64,000 nt of DNA from Clostridia bacterium (lineage in GTDB: Bacteria > Bacillota > Clostridia > Oscillospirales > CAG-272), in the NCBI GenBank assembly GCA_017631855.1, contig JAGBSP010000004.1, positions 81-64,080 of the forward strand, read 5' to 3'. A program made the translations under genes and the position numbers. Under the pieces are notes generated by a model. The model saw only the letters and a list, made by a program, of their open reading frames with translations, searched no databases and had not been told where the DNA came from. Positions 7,174-63,030 of this stretch are shown here, piece by piece (position 1 is the first letter of the stretch; each line of letters starts with the position of its first letter).

Positions 7174-8742
7174 TTATAATAATTCAAATTCGTCAAGATC
7201 TGAAAAGTCTTCGTTAGACGAAAGGATTTCTAGGATCAATTGATTCGGCTCAATCGATTTTTGAAGCTCCAAGCAAATTGCTCCACGGATACTTTCTATC
7301 ATCGACGGACGGTCAACCATAGATTTTGCAAACTCGTTGGGGAATTTCAAACGAATCGTACCATCCTCCGAAATTAACGCCTTAGCGGTCTTTAAAAATC
7401 CAAGAGCAGCGGCGTCACCGGAAGCGGCTCTTTCTGCAATCTCATTCCAACCGCGCAGCACCTTAAAAGTTGGTTCTGAAATCTCGGAAACGCGAAAAGT
7501 TTCTTGTTGTTCGGTTACAATATTTTTCTCAGAAAGATCGATTATCGTGGTTTGCTCAGAAAGCTCCGTGCTTGCTACGGTGCGAAACATTGTCCCCGAA
7601 GCCACAGTGGTTTCCAACTTGGAAATACGGGAAAGAAGCGCATCGGGAGAAGTATCCAAAGAAACGTCGCAAAGCTTTAATAGTGCCATTTCCGCAAGCA
7701 TACGGTTACTAGCCGTTGAATGCTGCATCATATAAAAGGTATCATCCAACACCCGACAATGATACAGTAGGGTTTCCTTGGAAAAAAGATCTGCCGTTTT
7801 CTTTAATCGTTCGGTTTCGGCCTTCGTCAGATCCAAATATTTCTCCGCCATCGCCGTTGCCTTGATTACTAACATATCTCGATAGAAAGAAATCAACTCT
7901 TGCCAAAAGACGGAAATATCCTTAGAGGAGCGAACAATCATATCCACCGTAGAAAAAATGGTATCAAAATTCGAAGATGCAATGGCACGAACCGCTTGCT
8001 CCAAACCATCTCGACCACCCGAGCCAACCGTTTCATTGACTAACTCCGGGGTAATTTTTTGTCTTGCTCCGGCACAAAGCTCCAATAAACTGATCGCGTC
8101 ACGCATACCGCCCTGAGCAAGCTTCGCCAACAGACGAAGCGCCTCAGTGTCGTAATCAATTTTTTCGCAGTCTGAAATATGAGCAAGTCGATCGCTGAGG
8201 ACCTGAGTACTAATACGGCGAAAATCAAAGCGCTGACATCTGGATATAATCGTGGAAGGTAGCTTATGCAGCTCGGTTGTAGCCAAAACGAAAACAACGT
8301 GCGCGGGAGGCTCTTCCAAGGTTTTGAGCAACGCATTAAACGCACTTCCACTCAACATATGAACCTCGTCCACAATATAAACGCGATATTTGAGAGACGA
8401 CGGCATATAAACGACCTCGTCGCGGATATCACGAATATTATCCACACCGTTATTGGAAGCGGCATCCATTTCAAGAACGTCGGTAGCAGTTCCTTCATCG
8501 ATAGAACGGCACGACGTACAACAGTTACAAGGACTTCCGTTTATAGGAGACTCACAGTTGACTGCTTTTGCCAAGATCTTCGCACACGTGGTTTTTCCCG
8601 TTCCACGAGAACCGCAAAAGAGGTAGGCATGGGAAAATTTCCGGTGCTCTGTTTCGTATTTTAAAATTGACGTAATATGCTCTTGACCGCATACCTCATC
8701 AAAGGTTTGCGGACGCCATTTTCGATAAAGAGCCTGATGCAT
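7174..8742 (-). CDS. dnaX: DNA polymerase III subunit gamma/tau
   Basis: Start set at MHQALYRKWRPQTF (ATG 8742) because the longer ORF overlaps the SRP RNA 3' helix. Walker A GSRGTGKTT and zinc module CNCCTSC are present. Confidence 0.93.
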   Translation of the reverse strand: MHQALYRKWRPQTFDEVCGQEHITSILKYETEHRKFSHAYLFCGSRGTGKTTCAKILAKAVNCESPINGSPCNCCTSCRSIDEGTATDVLEMDAASNNGVDNIRDIRDEVVYMPSSLKYRVYIVDEVHMLSGSAFNALLKTLEEPPAHVVFVLATTELHKLPSTIISRCQRFDFRRISTQVLSDRLAHISDCEKIDYDTEALRLLAKLAQGGMRDAISLLELCAGARQKITPELVNETVGSGGRDGLEQAVRAIASSNFDTIFSTVDMIVRSSKDISVFWQELISFYRDMLVIKATAMAEKYLDLTKAETERLKKTADLFSKETLLYHCRVLDDTFYMMQHSTASNRMLAEMALLKLCDVSLDTSPDALLSRISKLETTVASGTMFRTVASTELSEQTTIIDLSEKNIVTEQQETFRVSEISEPTFKVLRGWNEIAERAASGDAAALGFLKTAKALISEDGTIRLKFPNEFAKSMVDRPSMIESIRGAICLELQKSIEPNQLILEILSSNEDFSDLDEFELL

Positions 8743-18405: not shown

Positions 18406-19884
18406 TTAAAGAATAATACAAATTAAGCCGCCGCTACCCTCATTGATGATTCTCTCGAGGGTTTCGGAGAGCTTCGTACGCGATTCCTCGGGCATATGCT
18501 CGAGCTTGGTGTGAAGTCCCTCGTTGACGAGTTCATAAAGGCTCTTACCAAAGACGTTGGATTCCCAGATCTTTTGCGGCTCTTCCTCAAACTCCCTTAA
18601 CATATAGCGAACGAGCTCTTCGGACTGTTGCTCTGTTCCCACGATCGGATTGATCTCGGTTTCGATATTGGCGCGAATGAGGTGAATGGATTGTGCCGAA
18701 GCGCAAAGACGAACGCCATAACCGCCCGACTGTTTTACGATCTGCGGCTCTTCGAGATGAAGCTCCTCAATGCTCGGCATTACGATGCCGTATCCCTTCT
18801 CTTCTGCCATTGCAAGCGCCTCGGAAACACGCTCGTACTGTCCCTTCATCACGGAAAGCTCTTGCAAAAGCTCAATGAGCGCTCGCTCTCCCGTAATTTC
18901 AAATCCGCTTAGCTCACTAAGCACCGAATAATACAACGCGTCGTCAAAAGCGAGACGGAGCTTTGCCTTTCCCGTACCGAGATCAATTTCTTCGATGCGA
19001 ACACCGCACACGTACTCGTTATTTTCAAGATCGCCAAACGCATTTTTCAAGTCGCCTGTTTTATGAATTTTATCTGCGCAAGCGCAAAGAGAGCTTTGCA
19101 ACGAAGCTTTGATCTTGTGATCGGCATCCAGTGCTTCCATCCAAACGGGCAATTCTACAGAAATTTCCGACACGGGAAATTCGTGAAGTACAAGCTCAAG
19201 AATATGACGGATATCTTCTGCATCAAGATCAATACAGCTCACCAACGCCACGGGAACGTCGTACTTTGCCTCCAGCTCATAGGCAAGCGCGATCGCCGCT
19301 TCCGACGAAGGATTTGCAGAATTCAAGACCATTGCAAAGGGTTTTCCAATGCTTTTTAATTCGTTGACGATTCGCTCCTCGGCAGGAACGTAGCTTTCTC
19401 TTGAAATCTCACCGATCGTTCCGTCGGTCGTAATCAGCATACCGATGGTCGAATGCTCCTGAATGACCTTCTCCGTTCCCATTTCTGCGGCTTCAACAAA
19501 GGGCATCGGCTCTTCCTGCCACGGCGTATGTACCATGCGAGCCTGACCGTTTTCAATCGTACCGAGGGCTTCGGAAACGATATATCCGACGCAATCGATC
19601 ATTTTAACGCGCAAGGACGCACAGTCGTCAATTTTGATCGTTACCGCCTCGTCAGGTACAAACTTCGGCTCGGTAGTCATCACCGTTTTTCCTGCGGCAG
19701 ATTGCGGCATTTCATCGCGTGCACGATCTCTGGAATAGTTGTCGTCGATATTCGGCAACACCAAGGACTCCATAAAACGCTTGATAAAGGTCGACTTTCC
19801 CGTACGAACGGGACCAACGACGCCAATATAGATATCACCGCCCGTTCTTTCGGCAATATCTCGGTAAATCGAATGCTCAGCCAT
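18406..19884 (-). CDS. spoIVA: stage IV sporulation protein A (spore coat morphogenetic ATPase)
   Basis: 492 aa. The N-terminus IYIGVVGPVRTGKSTFIKRFME carries Walker A. SpoIVA-typical over its full length. Confidence 0.96.
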   Translation of the reverse strand: MAEHSIYRDIAERTGGDIYIGVVGPVRTGKSTFIKRFMESLVLPNIDDNYSRDRARDEMPQSAAGKTVMTTEPKFVPDEAVTIKIDDCASLRVKMIDCVGYIVSEALGTIENGQARMVHTPWQEEPMPFVEAAEMGTEKVIQEHSTIGMLITTDGTIGEISRESYVPAEERIVNELKSIGKPFAMVLNSANPSSEAAIALAYELEAKYDVPVALVSCIDLDAEDIRHILELVLHEFPVSEISVELPVWMEALDADHKIKASLQSSLCACADKIHKTGDLKNAFGDLENNEYVCGVRIEEIDLGTGKAKLRLAFDDALYYSVLSELSGFEITGERALIELLQELSVMKGQYERVSEALAMAEEKGYGIVMPSIEELHLEEPQIVKQSGGYGVRLCASAQSIHLIRANIETEINPIVGTEQQSEELVRYMLREFEEEPQKIWESNVFGKSLYELVNEGLHTKLEHMPEESRTKLSETLERIINEGSGGLICIIL

Positions 19885-23454: not shown

Positions 23455-24009
23455 TTATTCGGAAAGAATGATCTCTTTGATCGTCATCGTCAAACTCACA
23501 GTTTCCGTATGCACCTCCACAGTCTGTCCAGGTGCCAAATAACGAGTTCCGTTCACCAAAAAACCGCTCTCCTCGGAATAGGATCCTTCGCATAAGATTT
23601 TTCCTTCCACATCTACGCGGGCATCCATCGATTCACTGTTAGGATAGAAAACCTGGACGGTGTTTCCGTTTTGATCCACAAAATATTCGGAAGCAGGGGT
23701 CGGACGCAAGGCATTGAAAGATTCTGCAGAATATCCCATCAACTCTCCCAATTTCTCTCCGTCTTCTGCATAATAAACGACGTCATCAATATCCAGATAG
23801 TTCGTCGTAGATCTTCGGATATTCTGAACCGAAAAGGATACGACATATTCCTTCATATCTTTTTGATTTTTCAAGGTTTCAAATACATTATAACGAAAGT
23901 AAATACCAACGACCGAGGTAATTATCAAAAGAATAATTACGGCGTCTAACACCTTAAATCTCGGGCCTTGTTGGCTCCGTTCTTGCTTTTTTATTCTTTT
24001 TTCTTTCAT
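23455..24009 (-). CDS. N-terminally membrane-anchored envelope protein (DUF4330-like), copy 2
   Basis: 184 aa: basic N-terminus, one TM segment, then a beta-rich domain. It is a paralogue of the adjacent gene. The family name is recalled from memory. Confidence 0.7.
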   Translation of the reverse strand: MKEKRIKKQERSQQGPRFKVLDAVIILLIITSVVGIYFRYNVFETLKNQKDMKEYVVSFSVQNIRRSTTNYLDIDDVVYYAEDGEKLGELMGYSAESFNALRPTPASEYFVDQNGNTVQVFYPNSESMDARVDVEGKILCEGSYSEESGFLVNGTRYLAPGQTVEVHTETVSLTMTIKEIILSE

Positions 24010-24025
24010 AACCGATTACCTCTTT

Positions 24026-24571
24026 TCAGTCAACATCGGTTTCTAAACCGATACAGTATCCTTCAGAAACATAATCCGGGAAACGAAGCGATAGCTTTTC
24101 TCCCACAGCAATTCTCGTTGCATTGACCGAATATCCGCTCTCTTTCAAATAATCTGCTGTCGCGGAAATTGTTACGAGCAAATTGTACTTATTGGGATAT
24201 TCCGAAAGAATACCTTCCCCTTCCATACCGTTTTCCACATATTGAAGCTCAGAGTATTTCGTATTATAGTCTACGGCAACCACCGTTCCCATATTATTTT
24301 TTGATACCGAATTGATTACCAGGTCGTCTTCCTTAATTCTATCGATAAATTCCTGATCCACACCTAAAAACTCTACCGTATATTGAATTTCTTTCGTTTG
24401 ATTGGATGCTAGATTTTTAATCAGAGAAATCGGCGAAAATACCTGAACGAGAATCGCGACAACCAACAAAATGAGTACAACTAAAATCAAATCGATCAAA
24501 TTAAAACGACCGACTCTTTTTTTCTTCTTGGCTTTTCCAAAAGAGGAAGTTCCATTGATTGAATTGTTCAT
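24026..24571 (-). CDS. N-terminally membrane-anchored envelope protein (DUF4330-like), copy 1
   Basis: 181 aa with the same architecture (RFNLIDLILVVLILLVV...). Confidence 0.7.
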   Translation of the reverse strand: MNNSINGTSSFGKAKKKKRVGRFNLIDLILVVLILLVVAILVQVFSPISLIKNLASNQTKEIQYTVEFLGVDQEFIDRIKEDDLVINSVSKNNMGTVVAVDYNTKYSELQYVENGMEGEGILSEYPNKYNLLVTISATADYLKESGYSVNATRIAVGEKLSLRFPDYVSEGYCIGLETDVD

Positions 24572-24599
24572 TGTTCAAAATCCTTTCTGTAACTTTGGA

Positions 24600-26600
24600 T
24601 CAAAAATCAAGATCCATTGCTGCACTGTTTTCTTCATTGACAACAAGATAATTCTTTCTACTTTCCTCTGCACGCCCTACTCGAATACACGCACAAGCGA
24701 GCCCGAGAAGTGCCCAAAAGAGAAAGAAAATTCTGTAGTTATACCAAATAAAATCGAAAAGTCCCATCACTAGTGCGCCAACGATGGAGCACATACAAGC
24801 AATCACAAAAATTTTTGCCCGAACGTTTTGACTCTGCTTTAAATATTCAAAATTCATTTGTGCCGCAAGGAAAAGAATACAGAAGAAGCTCAAAAGACCG
24901 CCGATACCAAGTCCAATAAAAATTTGCAAGAACAAACTATGACTGTGCTCTGCTGCTTCAATTCCGGCATACGCAAATTGAGGATATACGTTTTGATATG
25001 CGGACGTTCCGTAACCAATTCCGCTCATAAAATATTCCTTGATCAAATTCCAAGAGCCTTTCCACGTATAATAGCGGTATGCCGTAGAAGAATCCGCAAG
25101 ATTGCCGATGCTCAAAAATCGTTTTGTAATCGAGTTTGGCAAAAGCATCGACCAAAACGGAATGGTCAACGCGAAAAGGAAAATCGACCGCAGCGTTTTT
25201 TTAGAGTAAATCAACCCAAAGACCAACAGGCAAGTGATGGTTGCAAGCCATGCCCCTCTTGACCAAGTCAAAACAATACATACAAGAACCGCGAACAACG
25301 AAATAAAGTATAATACCTTTTCTCTTCCGCGTTGCGCATATAAAAACATCAACAATACAAACGGAAGAATCAACACCAAATAAGACGCAAGTACGTTGGG
25401 ATTATCAAAGAAAGACACCGCCCGACGCGAAATATCGGAAAAATATTCACGATCGACCCAAGCATTCACTAACACCGAGGCAAAGAAATATTGAATAATC
25501 CCCCAAATCGCAACGACAGTACCAGAAGAAACAAGAGCCAAGACACAGCGTTTTAACCACAGCTCGGTTCTTATTAAGTTGACTGTTAAGAAATACCCCA
25601 ACATTAGACAGCAGGAGAGCAATACCTCGTTAAGACCTTTTTTTCCGCCCGCTGTAATCGTACCGGAAAAGAAGAGCAATAGGAAGAACAGCAACACAGA
25701 AAGATCGATCAATTCAATGCGCAAAATTCTCTTGCCTCGAATCAGCTTGATAAAGTACGAAATCGCTGTCAGCAATACTACAATGCCTAAAATGGTAGCG
25801 GGAATCTCAAAGAAGGATAAGAAAGGTAAGAAAAATAGGGAAAACAACACTCCGATTTCAGGCGTGTTCAAAATGATGACAACCGAAAAAATCAAAAGAA
25901 GAGCTAGCAAAATGAGCAAGGGATGAACAAAGAGTGTAATCATTCCAAGAATCATTCCAAGGAAAACAAGGATATTGTTTTTTGCTCTGCTTCCCTTTTG
26001 CGGAATTTCAAAGCATTCCTTGCGGTATCCTAAGAATTCAGAGCAAAGCATGTTGGTAATTACACCTGAATCCAATGCTTGTGCCAAGCTATCTTTAGAA
26101 AGAAATGTGGGGAGTGCTATAATACATACCGAAAATCCCGTAATAAAATACCCGATGTCGGATTGAGGCAAGCTTGGAACGACCAAACGGATCAAATAAA
26201 CCAATACGGTATAAACGCCGAAGAAAAAGAGTGATTTTCCGTAAGCTCGTAATGAAACACCAAGCCACGAGCGTGCCATGTTTTTCGTTTTATTCAAAAA
26301 CCAGCTGGTTTCAAAGGCTTTGGAAATATATTGACGAAATTTCCAAAAAAACGCCTTAAACTTTGCACTGATGAAATGATTTCTGAGAAATCCATTCTCA
26401 AAAGCATCCTGTTCTTTGGAATATGCCGTGAAAATTTTGGCAAAGAAACCACTATAAAGAGCGTGATAGATTGCGTTAGAGAATTTATCCAACAAAAACA
26501 AAATCAATCCAAGCGATGCTGTGGATTTTTCGGACTTTCGTTCCGCAGAATCAATTCCCGCATCCGCTGTATGAATTTTATTTTTCTTCAATCCAATCAC
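24600..26600 (-). CDS. O-antigen ligase (Wzy_C) family membrane protein
   Basis: 666 aa, polytopic, with the characteristic LTWSRGAWL loop motif. The start overlaps the trmD stop by 4 nt. Confidence 0.8.
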   Translation of the reverse strand: MIGLKKNKIHTADAGIDSAERKSEKSTASLGLILFLLDKFSNAIYHALYSGFFAKIFTAYSKEQDAFENGFLRNHFISAKFKAFFWKFRQYISKAFETSWFLNKTKNMARSWLGVSLRAYGKSLFFFGVYTVLVYLIRLVVPSLPQSDIGYFITGFSVCIIALPTFLSKDSLAQALDSGVITNMLCSEFLGYRKECFEIPQKGSRAKNNILVFLGMILGMITLFVHPLLILLALLLIFSVVIILNTPEIGVLFSLFFLPFLSFFEIPATILGIVVLLTAISYFIKLIRGKRILRIELIDLSVLLFFLLLFFSGTITAGGKKGLNEVLLSCCLMLGYFLTVNLIRTELWLKRCVLALVSSGTVVAIWGIIQYFFASVLVNAWVDREYFSDISRRAVSFFDNPNVLASYLVLILPFVLLMFLYAQRGREKVLYFISLFAVLVCIVLTWSRGAWLATITCLLVFGLIYSKKTLRSIFLFALTIPFWSMLLPNSITKRFLSIGNLADSSTAYRYYTWKGSWNLIKEYFMSGIGYGTSAYQNVYPQFAYAGIEAAEHSHSLFLQIFIGLGIGGLLSFFCILFLAAQMNFEYLKQSQNVRAKIFVIACMCSIVGALVMGLFDFIWYNYRIFFLFWALLGLACACIRVGRAEESRKNYLVVNEENSAAMDLDF

Positions 26601-55694: not shown

Positions 55695-55982
55695 TTAAAA
55701 AAATGACCGTTTCTTTTTCCTCTGATCTGCCCTGCACAGATCTGCCTCCAAGAGTCGGACAAGGATAGCATCTTCTCCGATACATTCGATTTTCTGCCAC
55801 GGGATAATGAGGTCGTTGCAATGGCTAAGTCCCAAAAATCCGCTCGGACGCGGAACAATAATCGCTACGATCCTTCCATCACATACGTTCACTTCAAAAT
55901 CTTCCGGACATCCGAGTCTCGTACCGTCGCAAAGATTGATCACTTCTTTTTCGCGTAAGCTGCAAGTATTTAACCGTTCCAT
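55695..55982 (-). CDS. YlmC/YmxH family sporulation protein (PRC barrel)
   Basis: Start at MERLNTCSLREKEVINLCDGTRLG (ATG 55982) with an AAGGAG RBS. Family-typical sequence. Confidence 0.85.
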   Translation of the reverse strand: MERLNTCSLREKEVINLCDGTRLGCPEDFEVNVCDGRIVAIIVPRPSGFLGLSHCNDLIIPWQKIECIGEDAILVRLLEADLCRADQRKKKRSFF

Positions 55983-55983
55983 A

Positions 55984-56035
55984 AAAATCTCCTTTGCCAA
56001 AGCTTGATAGTATCACTTTATGCAAAGGAGATTTT
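55984..56035 (-). promoter_or_regulatory. perfect 14-bp hairpin pairing with the ylmC Shine-Dalgarno sequence
   Basis: Minus-strand RNA: AAAAUCUCCUUUGC, a 24-nt loop, GCAAAGGAGAUUUU, then U AUG. The arms are at 56022-56035 and 55984-55997. Confidence 0.5.
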
Positions 56036-56054
56036 GTTCATTCAGGGCGCGATA

Positions 56055-58760
56055 TCAATTCGCGTTTCGCTGTTTGGAATACAAAAACAACGAAATCAAA
56101 AGGAAAAGCACCGACGGCACTAGGGAAAGCACAAGGTACGGCAACGGATTTTTTTCTAGCAAAAACAAAATCCCAAACGGTTGCCACAAAAACGCAAGCG
56201 CCAAAAAGGCGACGATAAAGAGGGTTTCCAGTAAAAATGCCGTGTCACGAAGCATCGATCGCCAACGACTCTCTGCACGTCCAAATCGAATCGCGAACAG
56301 AACAGACCAGTGCAAGAACAATAATGCCACAAAAGAAAACTCTCTCGGATACAAATATTTTCCGGCAAAATCAAGTACGTCCAAGATCCAAGGAAGAATC
56401 AGCACCGACAAAGAAGCAACAACCGTCGCCACCATCAATCCTTGATCTGTCAACATTACGTCGCGTAAGCGTCGCTGTCCAAACATCCCAACATCTGCTT
56501 TACCAAGTATTTGATCCTTCGCCTCTAAAAATGAAAAGAAGGCAAATACATCTAATACACAACTGCAAAGAAGCAAATGACGCGCATCCAAAAACCACTG
56601 ACCAAACAGCATCGGAACCGTCAAGACAATCATTCGGAGCACCTGCATCCAAAGCAAATAATTCAAAAATCCGGAAAGATTCTTCGTCAAGGTCTTGGTG
56701 TCCAATATTACCTGTGAAAGTGACACAAGACCACCTGTACCATACGAAGGTCTGGCAACCAAAACGTCAGCTTTCAATTTCACCGCTTGCGCAGATGATG
56801 CACTACTTCTCTCCCCTGTCACCTCAAAGGTTTGAATTTCTTCATCCAAATATCCCGAAACGTAAGATCGCATGGAAGCACAACTGATAAATCCGTCCGC
56901 CGCTTCGGCAATTTGCGCCGCATCCTCAGACATACCGCATACCAATACGCGATATCCGTGTGCACGAACTTCTTCAATCAACCCGATAATATCCTCTTTT
57001 TCAAAATCGGTATATCCGGCGATTTTACCAAAATGATGGGTCAGTGGTTTGTTGTGTTTCGAAAACAGATGTTTGGAAACAAAGCCCTGTTCCAAAATTT
57101 CCGAAGGGATGGGCGGAACGTTAGAGGACGCAGGAGAAAACAAAATCATTCGACATCCGGCATGTCGCAAAAGCTCTCTGTTTTTTACAAAGGCTTCGTC
57201 CACACCTTCCTTGAGAAGTAACATACCAAGGAAACAATGCTCTGAAAAAGAAATATCCAAACAGTAAGTAAAGACAATCGGAATCTGATGAGAAGCGATC
57301 GCTTTGCTCCACATAGAAAGCAGTCTGTTCCTTCCCTCTTCATTCAAATTCCGTTTTTCTCCCCCCATCATCGCACAACCACATTCTCTCAAAAGATCCG
57401 CAGAACGGGAAACGTGCAGCCAAATGCGTCGGTCACGATCGGAAATGCATACCTGTTCGGGAGAATCCAACAGATTCCCCGCGCCGTAAGAAAGACAGGA
57501 ACAACGGATCGAAAGCGCATCTTCATCCACACCGCTGAGTTTGATAAATTCGCCAATACCGTCCAAAAGGTCTCCCGTACTGCTCACACCCGTCGTTAAG
57601 GTTCGTGTTGCGGCAGAACGGTAGAGAGAAACCATTTCTGAAAAATATTTCGCCGTAGGATTGGTATCTCCATAATTTCGCACAATCCCCTCTGCGCAAA
57701 CAGCCTGATGAAAATGCAAATGACCGTCCGTCAGCAAAGAACCGTCCACAGCAAAGAGATAATCGGTATCTGCCAATCGACAAGCCGTTTCGATCGAACG
57801 AATTGCCGCAATACGCGATTTTGTTGCCAGTTTTCGAATACGGTTGACATAAAATACGCGGGCAAAGACCAACGTCAGATGAGAAGCCGTAGTTGCCACC
57901 AACGATAGCGCCGTTAAAAACACCGCAGAGAGCAACACCGTTCCACCACTGAAATAGCTGACCAACAAGCTAAAAAAGCTCAGTGGAATGACCGCCAAAA
58001 GCAAAGCAATATTGATTTTCTTACTTAATTTTCGCAAACCCGTAAGCTTATGCGGAAGCTCGTCCAAAAACGGAACTTCAATACCTCCCGTCATTGCACC
58101 AAGATAAGTATAGCGTCCCACCGCCGTGATGATGACACGGGCACTTCCCGCCTCCACCACAGATCCAGCGTGAACCATATTCACCATTTCGGAGGCACGG
58201 TGCTCGTTGGAATTGACGTGTCCTTCGGCAAATTTGTTCATCGACTGATAATGTTCACGGTCTACTCGCATACGAACACGAAGTCCGTCCGAGGTAACAA
58301 GCCGTCCATCACAGCAAATGACATCTCCCGCTTCCAGAAGCATCACGTCCCCCACTGCCACCGAACGGAAGTCTACGCAAAACAACCGCCCGCCACGAAC
58401 GACCCGAACGGTCGGATAAAAGAGCACTGTCATAGATTCCATCGTTCGCTGAGAACGATAAGAAAGAATAGCAATCAATGCCAAATTTCCCAACGTCAAA
58501 ATCAATACCGTCGCACCATTTCGCACCTCGTCAAAAAACAAAGAAACGATGGCGGCAAACAACAGAAGAATTAGGGCAAAATCCGCAAAAACATCTCCAA
58601 GCATCTTATAGGGAGATTGTCTAGGTAACACAAAGAGGGATCCCGTATTTTTTTGCGCACGAGAACGAGCCGCCTTACGGGAAAGACCCGTGGCGGCATT
58701 GGTTTTCAGTTTTTGTTCGATCTCTTCCGGAGAAAGTCTAAACCATTTTTCGTTCTTCAT
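56055..58760 (-). CDS. P-type ATPase homologue with degenerate catalytic motifs (probable pseudo-ATPase)
   Basis: 901 aa. It has a Cation_ATPase_N-like start (WFRLSPEEIEQKLKTNAATGLS), an actuator-like region and C-terminal TM bundles. However, TGES is replaced by YQSM, DKTGT by DGSLL, and GDGVND by GMSEDA. Confidence 0.85.
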   Translation of the reverse strand: MKNEKWFRLSPEEIEQKLKTNAATGLSRKAARSRAQKNTGSLFVLPRQSPYKMLGDVFADFALILLLFAAIVSLFFDEVRNGATVLILTLGNLALIAILSYRSQRTMESMTVLFYPTVRVVRGGRLFCVDFRSVAVGDVMLLEAGDVICCDGRLVTSDGLRVRMRVDREHYQSMNKFAEGHVNSNEHRASEMVNMVHAGSVVEAGSARVIITAVGRYTYLGAMTGGIEVPFLDELPHKLTGLRKLSKKINIALLLAVIPLSFFSLLVSYFSGGTVLLSAVFLTALSLVATTASHLTLVFARVFYVNRIRKLATKSRIAAIRSIETACRLADTDYLFAVDGSLLTDGHLHFHQAVCAEGIVRNYGDTNPTAKYFSEMVSLYRSAATRTLTTGVSSTGDLLDGIGEFIKLSGVDEDALSIRCSCLSYGAGNLLDSPEQVCISDRDRRIWLHVSRSADLLRECGCAMMGGEKRNLNEEGRNRLLSMWSKAIASHQIPIVFTYCLDISFSEHCFLGMLLLKEGVDEAFVKNRELLRHAGCRMILFSPASSNVPPIPSEILEQGFVSKHLFSKHNKPLTHHFGKIAGYTDFEKEDIIGLIEEVRAHGYRVLVCGMSEDAAQIAEAADGFISCASMRSYVSGYLDEEIQTFEVTGERSSASSAQAVKLKADVLVARPSYGTGGLVSLSQVILDTKTLTKNLSGFLNYLLWMQVLRMIVLTVPMLFGQWFLDARHLLLCSCVLDVFAFFSFLEAKDQILGKADVGMFGQRRLRDVMLTDQGLMVATVVASLSVLILPWILDVLDFAGKYLYPREFSFVALLFLHWSVLFAIRFGRAESRWRSMLRDTAFLLETLFIVAFLALAFLWQPFGILFLLEKNPLPYLVLSLVPSVLFLLISLFLYSKQRNAN

Positions 58761-61067
58761 TTAAATGCACTCAATCACTAATTTGTCTTCTTTTTTAGAA
58801 TATTTCAAAGAAATACCAACGAGCTTTCTTTCATAATCGGAAACGATCTTCTCCGCAATCAAATCCTCGACGTGACTGCGAATAAAGCGATGCATATTTC
58901 TTGCGCCGAATTTGTGTGAATAAGAGTTTTTCGCAATATAAGCAACAGCAGGTTGAGAATATACAAAAGAAATTCCCTTTTCGCTCAACGCCATCTTCAA
59001 TTCATCCAACAAAATGCATGCAATCTTTCCGAAATCGTCCTCACTCAAGGAATGGAAGGTGATAATCTCGTCCACACGATTAATAAATTCGGGACGAAGG
59101 AACGCCGAGAGCGCTTTCATCGTCTTGTCGTTATCCGCTCTTCCCTCGTTCAAAGAAAAGCCAACTGTTGCCGCCGAATGATCAGATCCCGCATTGGTGG
59201 TCATTACAAGCACGGTGTTTTCAAAGTTGACGGTTTTGCCGTGTGCATCAGTAATTCTTCCATCATCCAAAATCTGCAAAAGAATGTTCAAAACATCCGG
59301 ATGCGCCTTTTCAATCTCGTCAAACAACACAACCGAGTAAGGTCTACGGCGAATCTTCTCGGTCAACTGCCCCGCCTCGTCGTATCCAACGTATCCGGGA
59401 GGTGCTCCGATAATTCGGGAGACCGAATGCTTTTCCATAAATTCCGACATATCCAATCGAATTAGAGTTTCGGGAGAATGGAAAAGGTCTGCTGCAAGTG
59501 TTTTGACAAGCTCGGTCTTACCAACACCGGTCGGTCCCGCGAAAATAAAGGACACGGGCTTGCGTTTATAAGAAATCCCCGCACGGTTGCGCTTGATCGC
59601 TTTGGATACGGCAACAATCGCCTCGTCCTGTCCAATAATTCTTTGTTTCAAACGAGACTGAAGCTGATCGATCTGCTCAAACTCATTTTCCGAAATATCG
59701 GTAGCGGGAATTCCCGTCCATATTTCGATCACCGACGCAATATCCGCCTCACTCAAAAGGATTTGATCGCAGGAAAGCTCCAGTTCCTTCAAACGAGCGG
59801 ATGCCTTGATCTCTTTTGCCTTAATCTCGGCAATTTCCTCGTAGCATTTTTGTGCCTGCTTTTCCTCTGTGGGAGGATTGTTTTCCAAGGCTTCTCTCTT
59901 TTCACGAAGCGTGAGAAGCTCCTCGCGTAGCTGATGCGATTCGTTCAACGCGGCACTGCTCAAAGAGAGCTTCGATGCCGCCTCATCCAAAAGGTCGATT
60001 GCTTTGTCGGGCAGATAACGGTCGGTGATATATCTTTCGGATAAAACAACCGCACGGCGCACAACCGAATCTGGAATACGAATGGCGTGAAATTCTTCAT
60101 AATAATGCTTAATCCCCTCAAGCATTGCAACCGTTTCATCCATCGACGGTTCGTTGATCGTTACGGGCTGGAAGCGGCGCTCAAGAGCGGAATCCTTCTC
60201 AATATACTTACGATATTCGTTGAGTGTCGTCGCTCCGATAATGCGAACCTCTCCACGGGAAAGAGCCGGTTTTAAAATGTTCGCAGCGTTTACACTGCCC
60301 TCCGCATCACCCGTTCCGACAATATTATGAACCTCATCGATAACGAGAATGATGTTGCCCGCCTCCTTGACCTCGTTCAAAAGCCCGAGAATTCTCGACT
60401 CAAACTGTCCACGGAACTGCGTTCCCGCTACCAAAGCGGTCAGATCCACAAGATAGATCTGCTTGCCTTTCAATTTATACGGCACTTGTCCGTCCGCGAT
60501 CCTCTGAGCCAAAGCTTCGGCAATTGCCGTTTTACCAACACCTGGTTCGCCAATCAGACATGGGTTGTTTTTCTGTCGACGACAAAGAATCTGGATGACG
60601 CGCTCCATTTCACGCTCTCTTCCAATAATACGGTCAAGCTTTCCAGCCGCCGCACGACGGGTCAGGTTTCTGCAATAGGTGTCAAGAAATTTGTATTTTT
60701 TCTCTTTTGGAGCATCCTTTCCCTGCTTTGCCTTTTCCGAACGCCCCTCTTTGGCGGGGGAAGGCAAATTTCCTTCTTTGAAGAGCTTCGGCAGGTCAAT
60801 CGCAGGCGCACCGCCGTCCTCCAAATCGTCCAGCGAAGAGAAATTCTGAGCCTCGGACATAAACTGGTTGACCTCATCCTCGATCCCCTCAAGCTGTTCG
60901 GAAGAAATCCCCATCTGATTCATCATATTTCCAAGCATATTGTCCACGGGAATACCAAGTTCTCTGGCGCATTTGATACAAAGACCTTCGCTCAGCTTAT
61001 TTCCGTTTTCCAATTTATTGACGAATACGACAGCCACTCTTTTGTGGCACTTAGAACACATTACCAT
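58761..61067 (-). CDS. Clp/Hsp100 double-AAA+ unfoldase (ClpC-like) with an N-terminal zinc ribbon instead of Clp_N
   Basis: 768 aa. N-terminal CSKC...CIKC, Walker A GEPGVGKT and GPTGVGKT, a short coiled-coil middle domain, and a VGF loop in D2. The stop codon directly abuts the next ATG. Confidence 0.9.
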
Positions 61068-61731: not shown

Positions 61732-63030
61732 TTAATCCTGAAAGATCAAATATTCCGCTTTGGATTCTCCGCAAACCAATACCGTCTTTTGATTGTAAAT
61801 CAGCATTTTTCCGGTTCCCGAAGCAAGGCTTTGAATTCGATCCTCTTCTTTTTTTGCATTGGAATTCAAACGTTTGACACCGTTTTCGGTTTGTAAGAAG
61901 ATATATGATCCGTAAACCCCCACGTCGGATACATTAAAATCCACAGTATCATTATACAAGCGATTTCCATCCTTATCAAAGGCGTAGATCATCGTCTGCG
62001 AGGAAAGCGTGGCAGAAACGGCAACCCCCTCAGAGGTCAGCGAATATCCCGTGATATTACCAACGGAATAATCTCCACTACTTTCTTTCTCTGACAATGT
62101 TCGATCAAAAATACGAATGTAACGATCGGTCAAGAGCACAACACTCTGATTATCCAACGTACCACATGCGATCGGAAATTCTCCATCAAAGCGTACCGCC
62201 TCAATTTCTTCCAAGGTATCAAGATCACGGAGTGAGAGCGTCGTTCGTCCCGTTCCGTTGCCTGCATCGTACGAAAGAACCGACAGCGTATTGTTTTCGG
62301 TATTCAGTACGATATCAAACGCATAATACCCCGTTTCAAGCTCTAACATTTTTTTCATTTTAAAGTTTTTATTGTATACCTGAATCACCGATTGCTTCGC
62401 CGCCGTACGCGTAACAATCGCAAACGAACCGTCTTCTCCGAGACTCGCGTTCATTACGGGATATTCCACCGTTTTGGTAAATACTCGGGCAAAGGAATTA
62501 TAAATTGAAAACGTAGTTCCCGAGGTGTCGTATACCAAAATGTATTTGCCGGAGCTTTCCATAAAGGGAGAAGAAAAGCTCGTTGTCGCATTCAAGGTTC
62601 TTCGCCCCGTTGCAGTAAACACGGAAATCTTTGAGGGGCTGACACTTGCCAAGCCTCCTCGGTAAAGCGTAAAATTCTGTCGGTGATCCGATTCATAGGA
62701 AAGTGTTTCGTAATAGCTTCCGTCGTAATCAGCAGCTCCCGAAAAATCCTTGATCAGATAATAAAAATTATCATACGTAATTTGGGAATGGTTAAATACG
62801 ATCGAAAGGAGCATAAATAGGATAAACAGTAGCCAAAGAGCTCTTTGCGCCACTTTATAAACCGCGGAAACGCCCGCATAATACAAGTCACCCGCTCCGT
62901 CAAAATCCTCGTATCGAAGAACCTTTTCCTTTTGCGTTTCGGTATGAAAGAAGCGTCCGATCTTTTGTGAAATTTTTTGATTTTCTTCATCCGAAGTATG
63001 AGTATCTTGCTTGTCTTCTTTGTTTCGCAT
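61732..63030 (-). CDS. hypothetical single-pass membrane protein with a large beta-rich ectodomain (DUF5711-like?)
   Basis: 432 aa: acidic/basic N-terminus, one TM segment (ALWLLFILFMLLSIVF), then about 340 aa. The family name is tentative. Confidence 0.65.
   Translation of the reverse strand: MRNKEDKQDTHTSDEENQKISQKIGRFFHTETQKEKVLRYEDFDGAGDLYYAGVSAVYKVAQRALWLLFILFMLLSIVFNHSQITYDNFYYLIKDFSGAADYDGSYYETLSYESDHRQNFTLYRGGLASVSPSKISVFTATGRRTLNATTSFSSPFMESSGKYILVYDTSGTTFSIYNSFARVFTKTVEYPVMNASLGEDGSFAIVTRTAAKQSVIQVYNKNFKMKKMLELETGYYAFDIVLNTENNTLSVLSYDAGNGTGRTTLSLRDLDTLEEIEAVRFDGEFPIACGTLDNQSVVLLTDRYIRIFDRTLSEKESSGDYSVGNITGYSLTSEGVAVSATLSSQTMIYAFDKDGNRLYNDTVDFNVSDVGVYGSYIFLQTENGVKRLNSNAKKEEDRIQSLASGTGKMLIYNQKTVLVCGESKAEYLIFQD

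Follow-up and report, generated by a model that had tools for sequence, protein, structure and literature searches.

The DNA analysed here (the window) is a stretch of 64,000 nucleotides from a Clostridia bacterium (contig JAGBSP010000004.1), an ordinary piece of chromosome with genes such as secA, uvrABC, dxs, dnaX, rpsB and tsf. On its minus strand it encodes a protein of 901 amino acids that is built like a P-type cation ATPase and in which the motifs of the catalytic cycle are replaced; we refer to it as the pseudo-pump. It is identical to GenBank entry MBO5937986.1, named there 'cation-transporting P-type ATPase', a public label that is an over-call. The same GenBank name is found on the family members P0024, P0039, P0062, P0108 and P0109. 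The gene and the features of its product are as follows (TM, transmembrane helix):

56055..58760, minus strand: pseudo-P-type ATPase gene, 901 amino acids; uninterrupted open reading frame (ORF) with ATG start
58542..58745, minus strand: N-terminal Cation_ATPase_N-like segment, residues 6-73 (Pfam)
57822..58415, minus strand: actuator domain and TM3-TM4 region, residues 116-313 (Pfam E1-E2_ATPase, E-value 2e-14)
58230..58265, minus strand: lost TGES dephosphorylation loop, residues 166-177, VDREHYQSMNKF (alignment columns)
57870..57893, minus strand: TM4 segment with PEGL lost, residues 290-297, TTASHLTL (alignment, DSSP)
57723..57758, minus strand: phosphorylation-loop remnant with KTGT lost, residues 335-346, LFAVDGSLLTDG (alignments)
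57123..57146, minus strand: lost TGD motif, residues 539-546, ILFSPASS (alignment columns)
56916..56939, minus strand: lost hinge TGDGVNDA, residues 608-615, CGMSEDAA (alignment columns)
56730..56879, minus strand: family-specific insertion, residues 628-677 (alignment, AlphaFold2 model, conservation)
56634..56636, minus strand: TM5 Arg709, in the column of SERCA Glu771 and LMCA1 Ala691 (alignment)
56550..56588, minus strand: D725-A-R-H728 loop motif and TM6 Asp737 (alignment)

Pump architecture and catalytic motifs

Two Pfam families match the window protein, namely E1-E2_ATPase (PF00122; residues 116-313, E-value 2e-14, 53.9 bits against a cut-off of 28.1) and Cation_ATPase_N (PF00690; residues 6-73, 30.2 bits against a cut-off of 20.4), and no match to Hydrolase (PF00702), Cation_ATPase (PF13246), Cation_ATPase_C or the HAD models was obtained. 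NCBIfam models of Ca2+, Mg2+, H+ and Na+/K+ pumps cover just the first 220-290 residues with scores about ten-fold below their cut-offs; the P2A equivalog models TIGR01517, TIGR01522 and TIGR01116, for example, scored 58.6, 52 and 42 bits against cut-offs of 507, 798 and 703 bits, with matches confined to the N-terminal 260-290 residues. The best sequence match in the PDB, obtained with phmmer as a single-sequence search, was the Listeria Ca2+-ATPase LMCA1 (E-value 5e-20), aligned over residues 25-335 only. A profile of the family aligns with LMCA1 over positions 42-627 and 678-865 (E-value 8e-54), which demonstrates that the homology extends through the phosphorylation (P) and nucleotide-binding (N) domains and the C-terminal membrane domain, and in MAFFT alignments the family is collinear with genuine pumps. 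The C-terminal membrane bundle postulated by an earlier sequence-only reading of this DNA has no Pfam match in the window protein itself; its presence is supported by the profile alignment of positions 678-865 with LMCA1, by matches to PF00689 in some relatives and by the full-length structural match described below.

The AlphaFold2 model calculated with the family alignment is of high confidence (mean predicted local distance difference test score, pLDDT, 86.5; predicted template modelling score, pTM, 0.84), with only three short segments of low confidence, one of which is the family-specific insertion at residues 632-652. Its helices fit the topology of pumps with ten TM, and the break in TM4 at the pumps' unwound PEGL site is kept at residues 292-293, flanked by DSSP helices at 277-291 and 294-313. 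A Foldseek search against the PDB returned 270 matches with an E-value of at most 0.001; among the matches listed (the best 50 of the 270) all were P2- or P3-type ATPases, with a best E-value of 1.9e-33, about 950-1050 aligned columns, 12-16% identity and template modelling scores (TM-scores) of 0.55-0.71. The highest TM-scores were reached with E1-type states (0.71 for SERCA E1 with sarcolipin, 0.68 for Na,K-ATPase E1.Mg2+), and E2 states scored lower. The divergent family member P0112, which is 23% identical to the window protein and has Gly at position 339, is predicted to fold equally well (pLDDT 84.1, pTM 0.85, TM-scores of up to 0.72). Both the profiles and the collinear arrangement of actuator (A), P and N domains with a membrane domain of ten helices place the protein in the P-type superfamily, as the sequence-only reading had proposed; more precisely, its full-length homology is to P2-type ATPases of the LMCA1/SERCA kind. 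The window protein descends by vertical inheritance from a P2 Ca2+-ATPase of the LMCA1/YloB type and is a pseudoenzyme in which the whole pump architecture has been kept: the N-terminal segment, the actuator, the folds for phosphorylation and nucleotide binding, and ten TM helices with the break in TM4.

None of the catalytic motifs has survived in this fold. A regular-expression scan of the window protein detected no intact catalytic motif, and DKTG[TS] is absent from it and from 143 full-length family members, whose alignment is the basis of the residue-by-residue counts below unless another n is given; profile alignment likewise revealed no intact DKTGT, TGES or GDGxND elsewhere in the protein. 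The peptides quoted by the sequence-only reading, VDREHYQSMNKF (residues 166-177), LFAVDGSLLT (residues 335-344, nucleotides 57729-57758) and CGMSEDAA (residues 608-615), all lie where they had been placed, and the motif positions assigned to them agree with alignments to genuine Ca-ATPases. In these alignments the TGES column is occupied by R168-E169-H170-Y171, and throughout the family the T, G and E columns contain R/K, then E/D/K/N, then variable residues. The IPEAL columns of TM4 correspond to A292-S293-H294-L295-T296; the Pro column is S/T/P in the family, and the Glu column, which is H294 in the window protein, contains Q in 88, A in 13, H in 9 and E in 8 of the 143 members. The SDKTGTLT columns are A337-V338-D339-G340-S341-L342-L343-T344. 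In the N domain, the TKGxPE columns (H449-V450-S451-R452-S453-A454) are not kept as a motif across the family, the column of the Lys itself (V450) being V in 83, I in 16 and L in 5 members (n=104); the adenine-stacking Phe of the LMCA1 'PFDSDRK' motif aligns to non-aromatic residues, and Pfam Cation_ATPase (PF13246) matches the relatives no more than the window protein. The TGD columns (S542-P543-A544) are not kept as a motif either, and at the hinge (C608-G609-M610-S611-E612-D613-A614-A615) the column of the first Asp is Phe in 98 and that of the last Asp is Ala in 76 of the 143 members.

The statement that the phosphorylated Asp is retained has to be qualified. D339 is present, but both MAFFT and HMMER put it in the column of the Lys of DKTGT, with V338 in the column of the phospho-Asp, and D339 can be equated with the latter only if a one-residue deletion is assumed. 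Moreover, D339 is Asp in 125 and Gly in 18 of the 143 members, so that the role of the family, whatever it may be, does not depend on it.

The ion-binding residues of Ca2+ site II in P2A pumps have fared similarly. The Glu of PEGL in TM4 is gone, the TM6 Asn column is Ser or Gly, and the only site II residue kept is the TM6 Asp. As judged from the sequence, every class of residues required for the Post-Albers cycle is lost: the ATP-binding Lys and Phe of the N domain, DKTGT, TGD and GDGxND (with GDGxNDxP as the full hinge signature of competent enzymes), TGES, and the Glu of PEGL. The protein therefore cannot act as an ATP-driven cation pump. It resembles LMCA1 (Listeria lmo0841) and YloB, both P2A Ca2+-ATPases, in its size of about 880-900 amino acids, in domain order, in full-length superposition and, for LMCA1, in the TM6 Asp (LMCA1 Asp720). 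It differs from LMCA1 and YloB in the replacement of TGES, the PEGL Glu, DKTGT, KGxPE, TGD and GDGxND, in about 40 residues inserted before the last strand of the P domain, and in the Arg carried by TM5.

Family, conserved residues and selection

The loss of motifs is common to a whole family. Among 5.8 billion proteins we found 114 relatives, most of them 880-925 amino acids long and 80% down to 23% identical to the window protein, none of which has a precomputed Pfam match to Hydrolase or Cation_ATPase; the next matches, at an E-value of about 1e-23, are genuine Ca2+-ATPases with all domains. None of the 114 contains DKTGT or GDGxND, nor TGES, PEGL or TGD at the expected positions, and the same losses are seen in the 143 full-length members; the same regular expressions detected every motif in six out of six genuine pumps. 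When residues 316-680, the P/N region, served as the phmmer query, 1.84 billion cluster representatives were searched with no word index, and 60 clusters had an E-value of at most 1e-3; most of their representatives have 835-931 amino acids, the remainder being fragments. Neither DKTGT nor GDGxND occurs in these clusters, including all members of at least 850 amino acids, and the search matched no genuine pump. More distant motif-less branches were found by way of the neighbouring gene, among them clusters of 417 and 107 members mainly from human-gut assemblies. Motif-bearing intermediates or a genuine pump at the corresponding locus were looked for and rejected: the P/N-region search yielded motif-less relatives only, P0116, the genuine Ca-ATPase closest to the family, is encoded among unrelated genes, and in one sister lineage the site is empty.

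In place of the pump signatures the family has conserved features of its own, amounting to approximately 24 invariant and 80 near-invariant residues. Its most conserved motif, NEKWF..IE.KLKTNAAxGLSxKAARSR, is located in the N-terminal segment (G25 in 143/143, A31 in 140/143 and R32 in 138/143 members). The actuator residues R122, G137, D138, D146 and D151 are each invariant (143/143), a family-specific xL[TS]DG motif near the phosphorylation loop has D345 and G346 in 142 of the 143 members, and D412, G512 and D622 are conserved in addition. The insertion ends in R670-P671..G676-G677 (RPx4GG), which replaces the pumps' xDDNF and in which R670, G676 and G677 are each found in 142/143 members. 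In the membrane domain Q706 is conserved; the position of R709 is Arg in 130 and Lys in three members, and D737, in the column of SERCA Asp800 and LMCA1 Asp720, is Asp in 125 and Glu in eight, both positions being conserved in all branches (residue equivalences of SERCA and LMCA1 from bioRxiv 10.1101/2020.06.23.166462). In a branch that is common in the human gut (locus L088, 8322-8463), gene callers often start the pseudo-pump 47 codons late, giving 845 instead of 892 amino acids; the late start removes the Cation_ATPase_N-like segment, whose codons lie in frame upstream.

All carriers are uncultured Clostridia, Eubacteriales or Oscillospiraceae known as metagenome-assembled genomes (MAGs) from ruminant, chicken and human gut, well over a hundred in number and including 'Clostridium sp. 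CAG:448'. An intact ORF of 873-928 amino acids is present at 80 of the 81 loci that are not cut by a contig end, and the single exception is an assembly gap. Compared with an 80%-identical orthologue, the ratio of non-synonymous to synonymous substitution rates (dN/dS) is 0.12 overall and 0.05-0.18 across seven protein segments including the former P and N domains, which leaves all seven below 0.2; the neighbouring genes show 0.03-0.08 in the same comparison. In 25 other gene pairs, some of them with unsaturated dS of 0.23-0.8, dN/dS amounts to 0.05-0.17. With identities of 23-80%, compared with 67-96% for the product of the upstream ClpE-like gene and 83-100% for RpsB, the pseudo-pump evolves faster than its neighbours yet is constrained. 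A decaying pseudogene, or an artefact of assembly or annotation, would account for the loss of all catalytic motifs and for the faster evolution, but it is refuted by the intact frames, by purifying selection, by the invariant and near-invariant residues in a confidently predicted fold and by the occurrence of the gene in independent assemblies from three types of host gut; we regard its probability as negligible. The pseudo-pump is thus very probably a maintained non-catalytic protein, as the sequence-only reading had argued from the intact frame, and the motif loss common to orthologues, the low dN/dS and the kept A/P/N/ten-TM architecture all bear this out. Gene duplication was considered and rejected, the loci L058 and L064 (one MAG) being 99.99% identical and representing assembly redundancy; paralogy was rejected for L031 and L035, whose 88% identity suggests two strains in one bin.

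Gene neighbourhood and the ClpE-like unfoldase

The loci that carry the pseudo-pump share the gene order ecfA-ecfA-ecfT-truA-DUF5711-(cvpA and/or pgsA)-ClpE-like-pseudo-pump-(YlmC/YmxH)-rpsB-tsf. In the window the two genes that enclose the pseudo-pump are:

58761..61067, minus strand: ClpE-like class-I Hsp100 unfoldase, 768 amino acids (Pfam, motifs, published ClpE features)
55695..56000, minus strand: YlmC/YmxH-family PRC-barrel sporulation protein (TIGR02888, 63.5 bits against a cut-off of 44.2)

The ClpE-like gene directly precedes the pseudo-pump at every locus with upstream sequence (about 88), including those of the most divergent branches. Its product has two AAA modules (Pfam AAA, AAA_lid_9, AAA_2 and ClpB_D2-small) and no Clp_N, a coiled-coil middle region and a VGF tripeptide for ClpP docking. 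At its N-terminus is a CxxC..CxxC zinc ribbon, which 78 of 79 orthologues share, and the linker that leads to the first AAA module contains the strictly conserved motif GGAPAIDLP(K)LF. The protein thus agrees with the published description of ClpE (PMC13125188), the N-terminal domain being matched to ClpE by description only. In the window, the TAA stop codon of the ClpE-like gene abuts the ATG of the pseudo-pump (TAAATG); among 79 loci the distance is at most 4 nucleotides, or the genes overlap, in 61, and it is at most 44 nucleotides in all, and the two genes are probably translationally coupled. The ClpE-like gene itself begins 27 nucleotides after pgsA. Characterised clpE is a monocistronic heat-shock gene regulated by CtsR, and its product is adaptor-independent (PMC13125188). 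In contrast, the ClpE-like gene is part of a row of housekeeping genes, the window contains no CtsR operator even if two mismatches are allowed, and the gene of a ten-TM protein follows next. Signs of separate regulation were looked for, but scans for sigma-70-type promoters and for terminators performed no better than on shuffled sequence.

The YlmC/YmxH gene follows 54 nucleotides after the stop codon of the pseudo-pump in the window and occurs in most but not all related loci. At about 21 loci (L024, L028, L033-L034, L036, L038-L039, L041, L046-L051, L055-L059, L061, L064) it is absent, and rpsB follows about 220-500 nucleotides on; YlmC/YmxH is therefore no obligatory partner of the pseudo-pump. 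A sister lineage (L089) has the syntenic genes cvpA, ClpE-like, ylmC, rpsB, tsf, pyrH, frr, uppS, cdsA and dxr, with a strong, terminator-like hairpin and T-run (8300-8440) directly after the ClpE-like gene, followed by ylmC and rpsB. The DUF5711 protein (432 amino acids, window positions 61732-63030, minus strand) is found in nearly all related loci and evolves fast (24-88% identity). At a greater distance, the window encodes an intact SpoIVA with ATPase, middle and C-terminal domains (18406-19884, minus strand), so the organism probably forms endospores. The highest plus-strand AT skew of the window occurs at 56001-58000 (0.22) and 24001-26000 (0.17); each peak falls on a minus-strand gene of a polytopic membrane protein, that of the pseudo-pump in the first case and that of a Wzy_C/O-antigen-ligase-like protein (24600-26600) in the second, and both are likely due to T-rich hydrophobic codons. 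A role in anti-phage defence was rejected, as the pseudo-pump had no PADLOC match and the ClpE-like protein had only generic AAA matches.

Possible functions and implications

We consider it about evenly balanced whether the protein is, taken as a whole, a non-catalytic pseudo-pump with a self-neutralised ion site, a cytosolic headpiece serving as a platform, and ClpE-ClpP as its partner. The former ion site would be neutralised internally by R709 in TM5, paired with the retained D737 in TM6. In LMCA1 the positive charge of Arg795 is built into Ca2+ site I and fills it (bioRxiv 10.1101/2020.06.23.166462), which suggests that a similar self-neutralised site might exist in the pseudo-pump, and the P3A H+-ATPase AHA2 has an Arg655/Asp684 pair (PMC10654040). 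The aligned residues of the pseudo-pump are reminiscent of both, with a conserved basic residue in a column that borders the canonical ion site, beside the conserved TM6 Asp; unlike LMCA1 Arg795, this Arg is on TM5 (column of SERCA Glu771) and not on TM8, where the corresponding column is His or Gln. The Glu of site II has been lost alongside the presence of the TM5 Arg, which leaves no site for transport. The cytosolic headpiece, with its KLKTNAAxGLSxKAARSR, xLTDG and RPx4GG motifs, may act as a docking or conformational-signalling platform, by which the pseudo-pump could tether or regulate ClpE-ClpP at the membrane. Judged by gene context, ClpE-ClpP is the most plausible partner because the coupling of the two genes is tight and universal, and a function that runs through ClpE is a tentative proposal which we think rather less probable than the contrary. 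The nearest parallels on the protease side are ClpE-ClpP, whose unfoldase hallmarks the product of the upstream gene shows, and the Clp adaptors (MecA and McsA/McsB for ClpC); genes of Clp adaptors are often organised together with those of their unfoldase (PMC13125188). To our knowledge, there is no known membrane adaptor of ClpE.

An unlikely extension of this proposal is that a P-type pump has become the receptor or adaptor by which an AAA+ protease is bound at the membrane, with functions in docking, control of ClpE-ClpP and possibly sensing. Here the dead headpiece, through its invariant N-terminal motif and its new xLTDG/RPx4GG surface, would dock the zinc-ribbon N-domain or the coiled coil of the co-translated ClpE-like unfoldase, so that ClpE-ClpP would be localised or gated at the membrane, for example to extract membrane proteins or to confine proteolysis during sporulation, and the Arg-Asp ion site might still sense membrane potential, pH or Ca2+.

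Several observations speak against the combination of a non-catalytic platform with ClpE-ClpP as its partner. The whole neighbourhood is syntenic across the clade, and the adjacency to ClpE may thus reflect vertical inheritance alone. The sister lineage L089 has a near-identical ClpE-like gene and no pseudo-pump; ClpE therefore does not need the pseudo-pump, and the latter is dispensable in, or was never acquired by, this lineage. In addition, no region of ClpE specific to genomes with the pseudo-pump is visible, and the presumed R709-D737 salt bridge is read from alignment columns. Finally, D339 (Asp in 125/143 members) ends the beta-1 strand, the usual seat of HAD nucleophiles, and on sequence grounds some residual phosphate or metal chemistry is conceivable.

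This last point leads to the alternative of a still active enzyme or pump with non-canonical chemistry, in which D339 (hhhhDGS, compare the DxDxT of HAD proteins) would cooperate with the near-invariant D345, D622 and R670 as new partners. The position of D339 after a hydrophobic strand, like that of a HAD nucleophile, agrees with this, but members with Gly at this position are otherwise conserved and equally well folded, the Mg2+ ligands of GDGxND, the Lys of motif III, the Thr of TGD, TGES and the N-domain Lys and Phe are all gone, and there is no Pfam Hydrolase or HAD match, which makes such an activity very improbable. A better, though still rather unlikely, alternative is an autonomous passive ion pathway or an ion or voltage sensor, whose membrane domain would need no ATP to sense or conduct a cation or proton and whose cytosolic domains would be merely a gate or stabiliser. 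D737, Q706 and the DARH loop are conserved, position 294 is polar as well (Gln in 88/143 members, His in the window protein), the model keeps the TM4 helix break, and P-type pumps can be converted to channels, as in the palytoxin-bound Na,K-ATPase (9vj0) that is among the structural matches; the L089 lineage, which keeps ClpE without the pseudo-pump, also makes independent action possible. However, the strongest conservation is cytosolic (N-terminal motif, A domain, xLTDG, RPx4GG) and not in the TM core, the dN/dS of TM5-10 (0.15) is among the highest of the seven segments, and a conserved Arg in an ion-site column is expected to fill the site and not to leave it open.

Pseudoenzymes often regulate active paralogues, and the pseudo-pump might likewise regulate, or form heteromers with, a genuine P-type ATPase whose gene lies elsewhere in the genome, comparable to pseudokinase-kinase pairs or MgtA dimers. 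Preservation of the full pump fold in all domains and the presence of the MgtA dimers 8uy7 and 8uy8 among the structural matches are in line with this, but neither the 64-kb window nor any related locus encodes an active P-type ATPase, and we assign this possibility a low probability. No higher do we rate a structural role specific to sporulation, exerted along with YlmC/YmxH in the membrane of the mother cell or forespore, for a protein derived from the Ca2+-ATPase YloB. The product of the downstream gene passes the YlmC/YmxH family model, SpoIVA is encoded in the window, and LMCA1, the closest relative with a solved structure, belongs to the same kind of bacterial Ca2+-ATPase as YloB; YloB itself has been linked to sporulation. 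Against this role stand the approximately 21 loci without YlmC/YmxH between the pseudo-pump and rpsB, the location in an operon-like row of housekeeping genes beside rpsB-tsf, and the chance-level result of the sigma-70-type promoter scan.

In full-text literature searches, which covered the FUPA families and a field review of 2023, no bacterial family of pseudo-P-type ATPases was found to be described, and the P4-like modules of alveolate guanylate cyclases were the only analogues encountered. The P4-like domains of GC-beta are degenerate. In Plasmodium and Toxoplasma, P4-ATPase-like domains are fused to guanylate cyclases (PMC6592433, PMC13466520); for P. falciparum GC-alpha, the conserved Asp lies in the DKTGT motif, and the title of the paper calls the activity of that domain essential. 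Like the pseudo-pump, these fusions place a P-type module in a signalling or scaffolding context and not in that of a stand-alone pump; unlike the pseudo-pump, they are eukaryotic, belong to the P4 (flippase) lineage and are joined to a cyclase.

P-type ATPases are defined by their phosphorylation chemistry, and the family described here has kept the four-domain fold under purifying selection after losing that chemistry, over a long span of evolution in which identity falls to about 20%. It represents a natural experiment on what this fold can achieve when ATP is no longer used, and one of the uncommon pseudoenzymes of bacterial membranes. As a consequence of the label 'cation-transporting', reconstructions of transport and metabolism credit these abundant gut Clostridia with a pump that they lack; one sub-branch alone forms a cluster of 417 members from human-gut assemblies. 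If the link to ClpE is true, the pseudo-pump would be the first candidate membrane partner of ClpE, for which the localisation of ClpE-ClpP and its control by adaptors are regarded as open possibilities (PMC13125188). Should the pseudo-pump indeed be a receptor for the protease, ClpE would have its first membrane adaptor, and a bacterial pseudo-P-type ATPase would for the first time be assigned a role.

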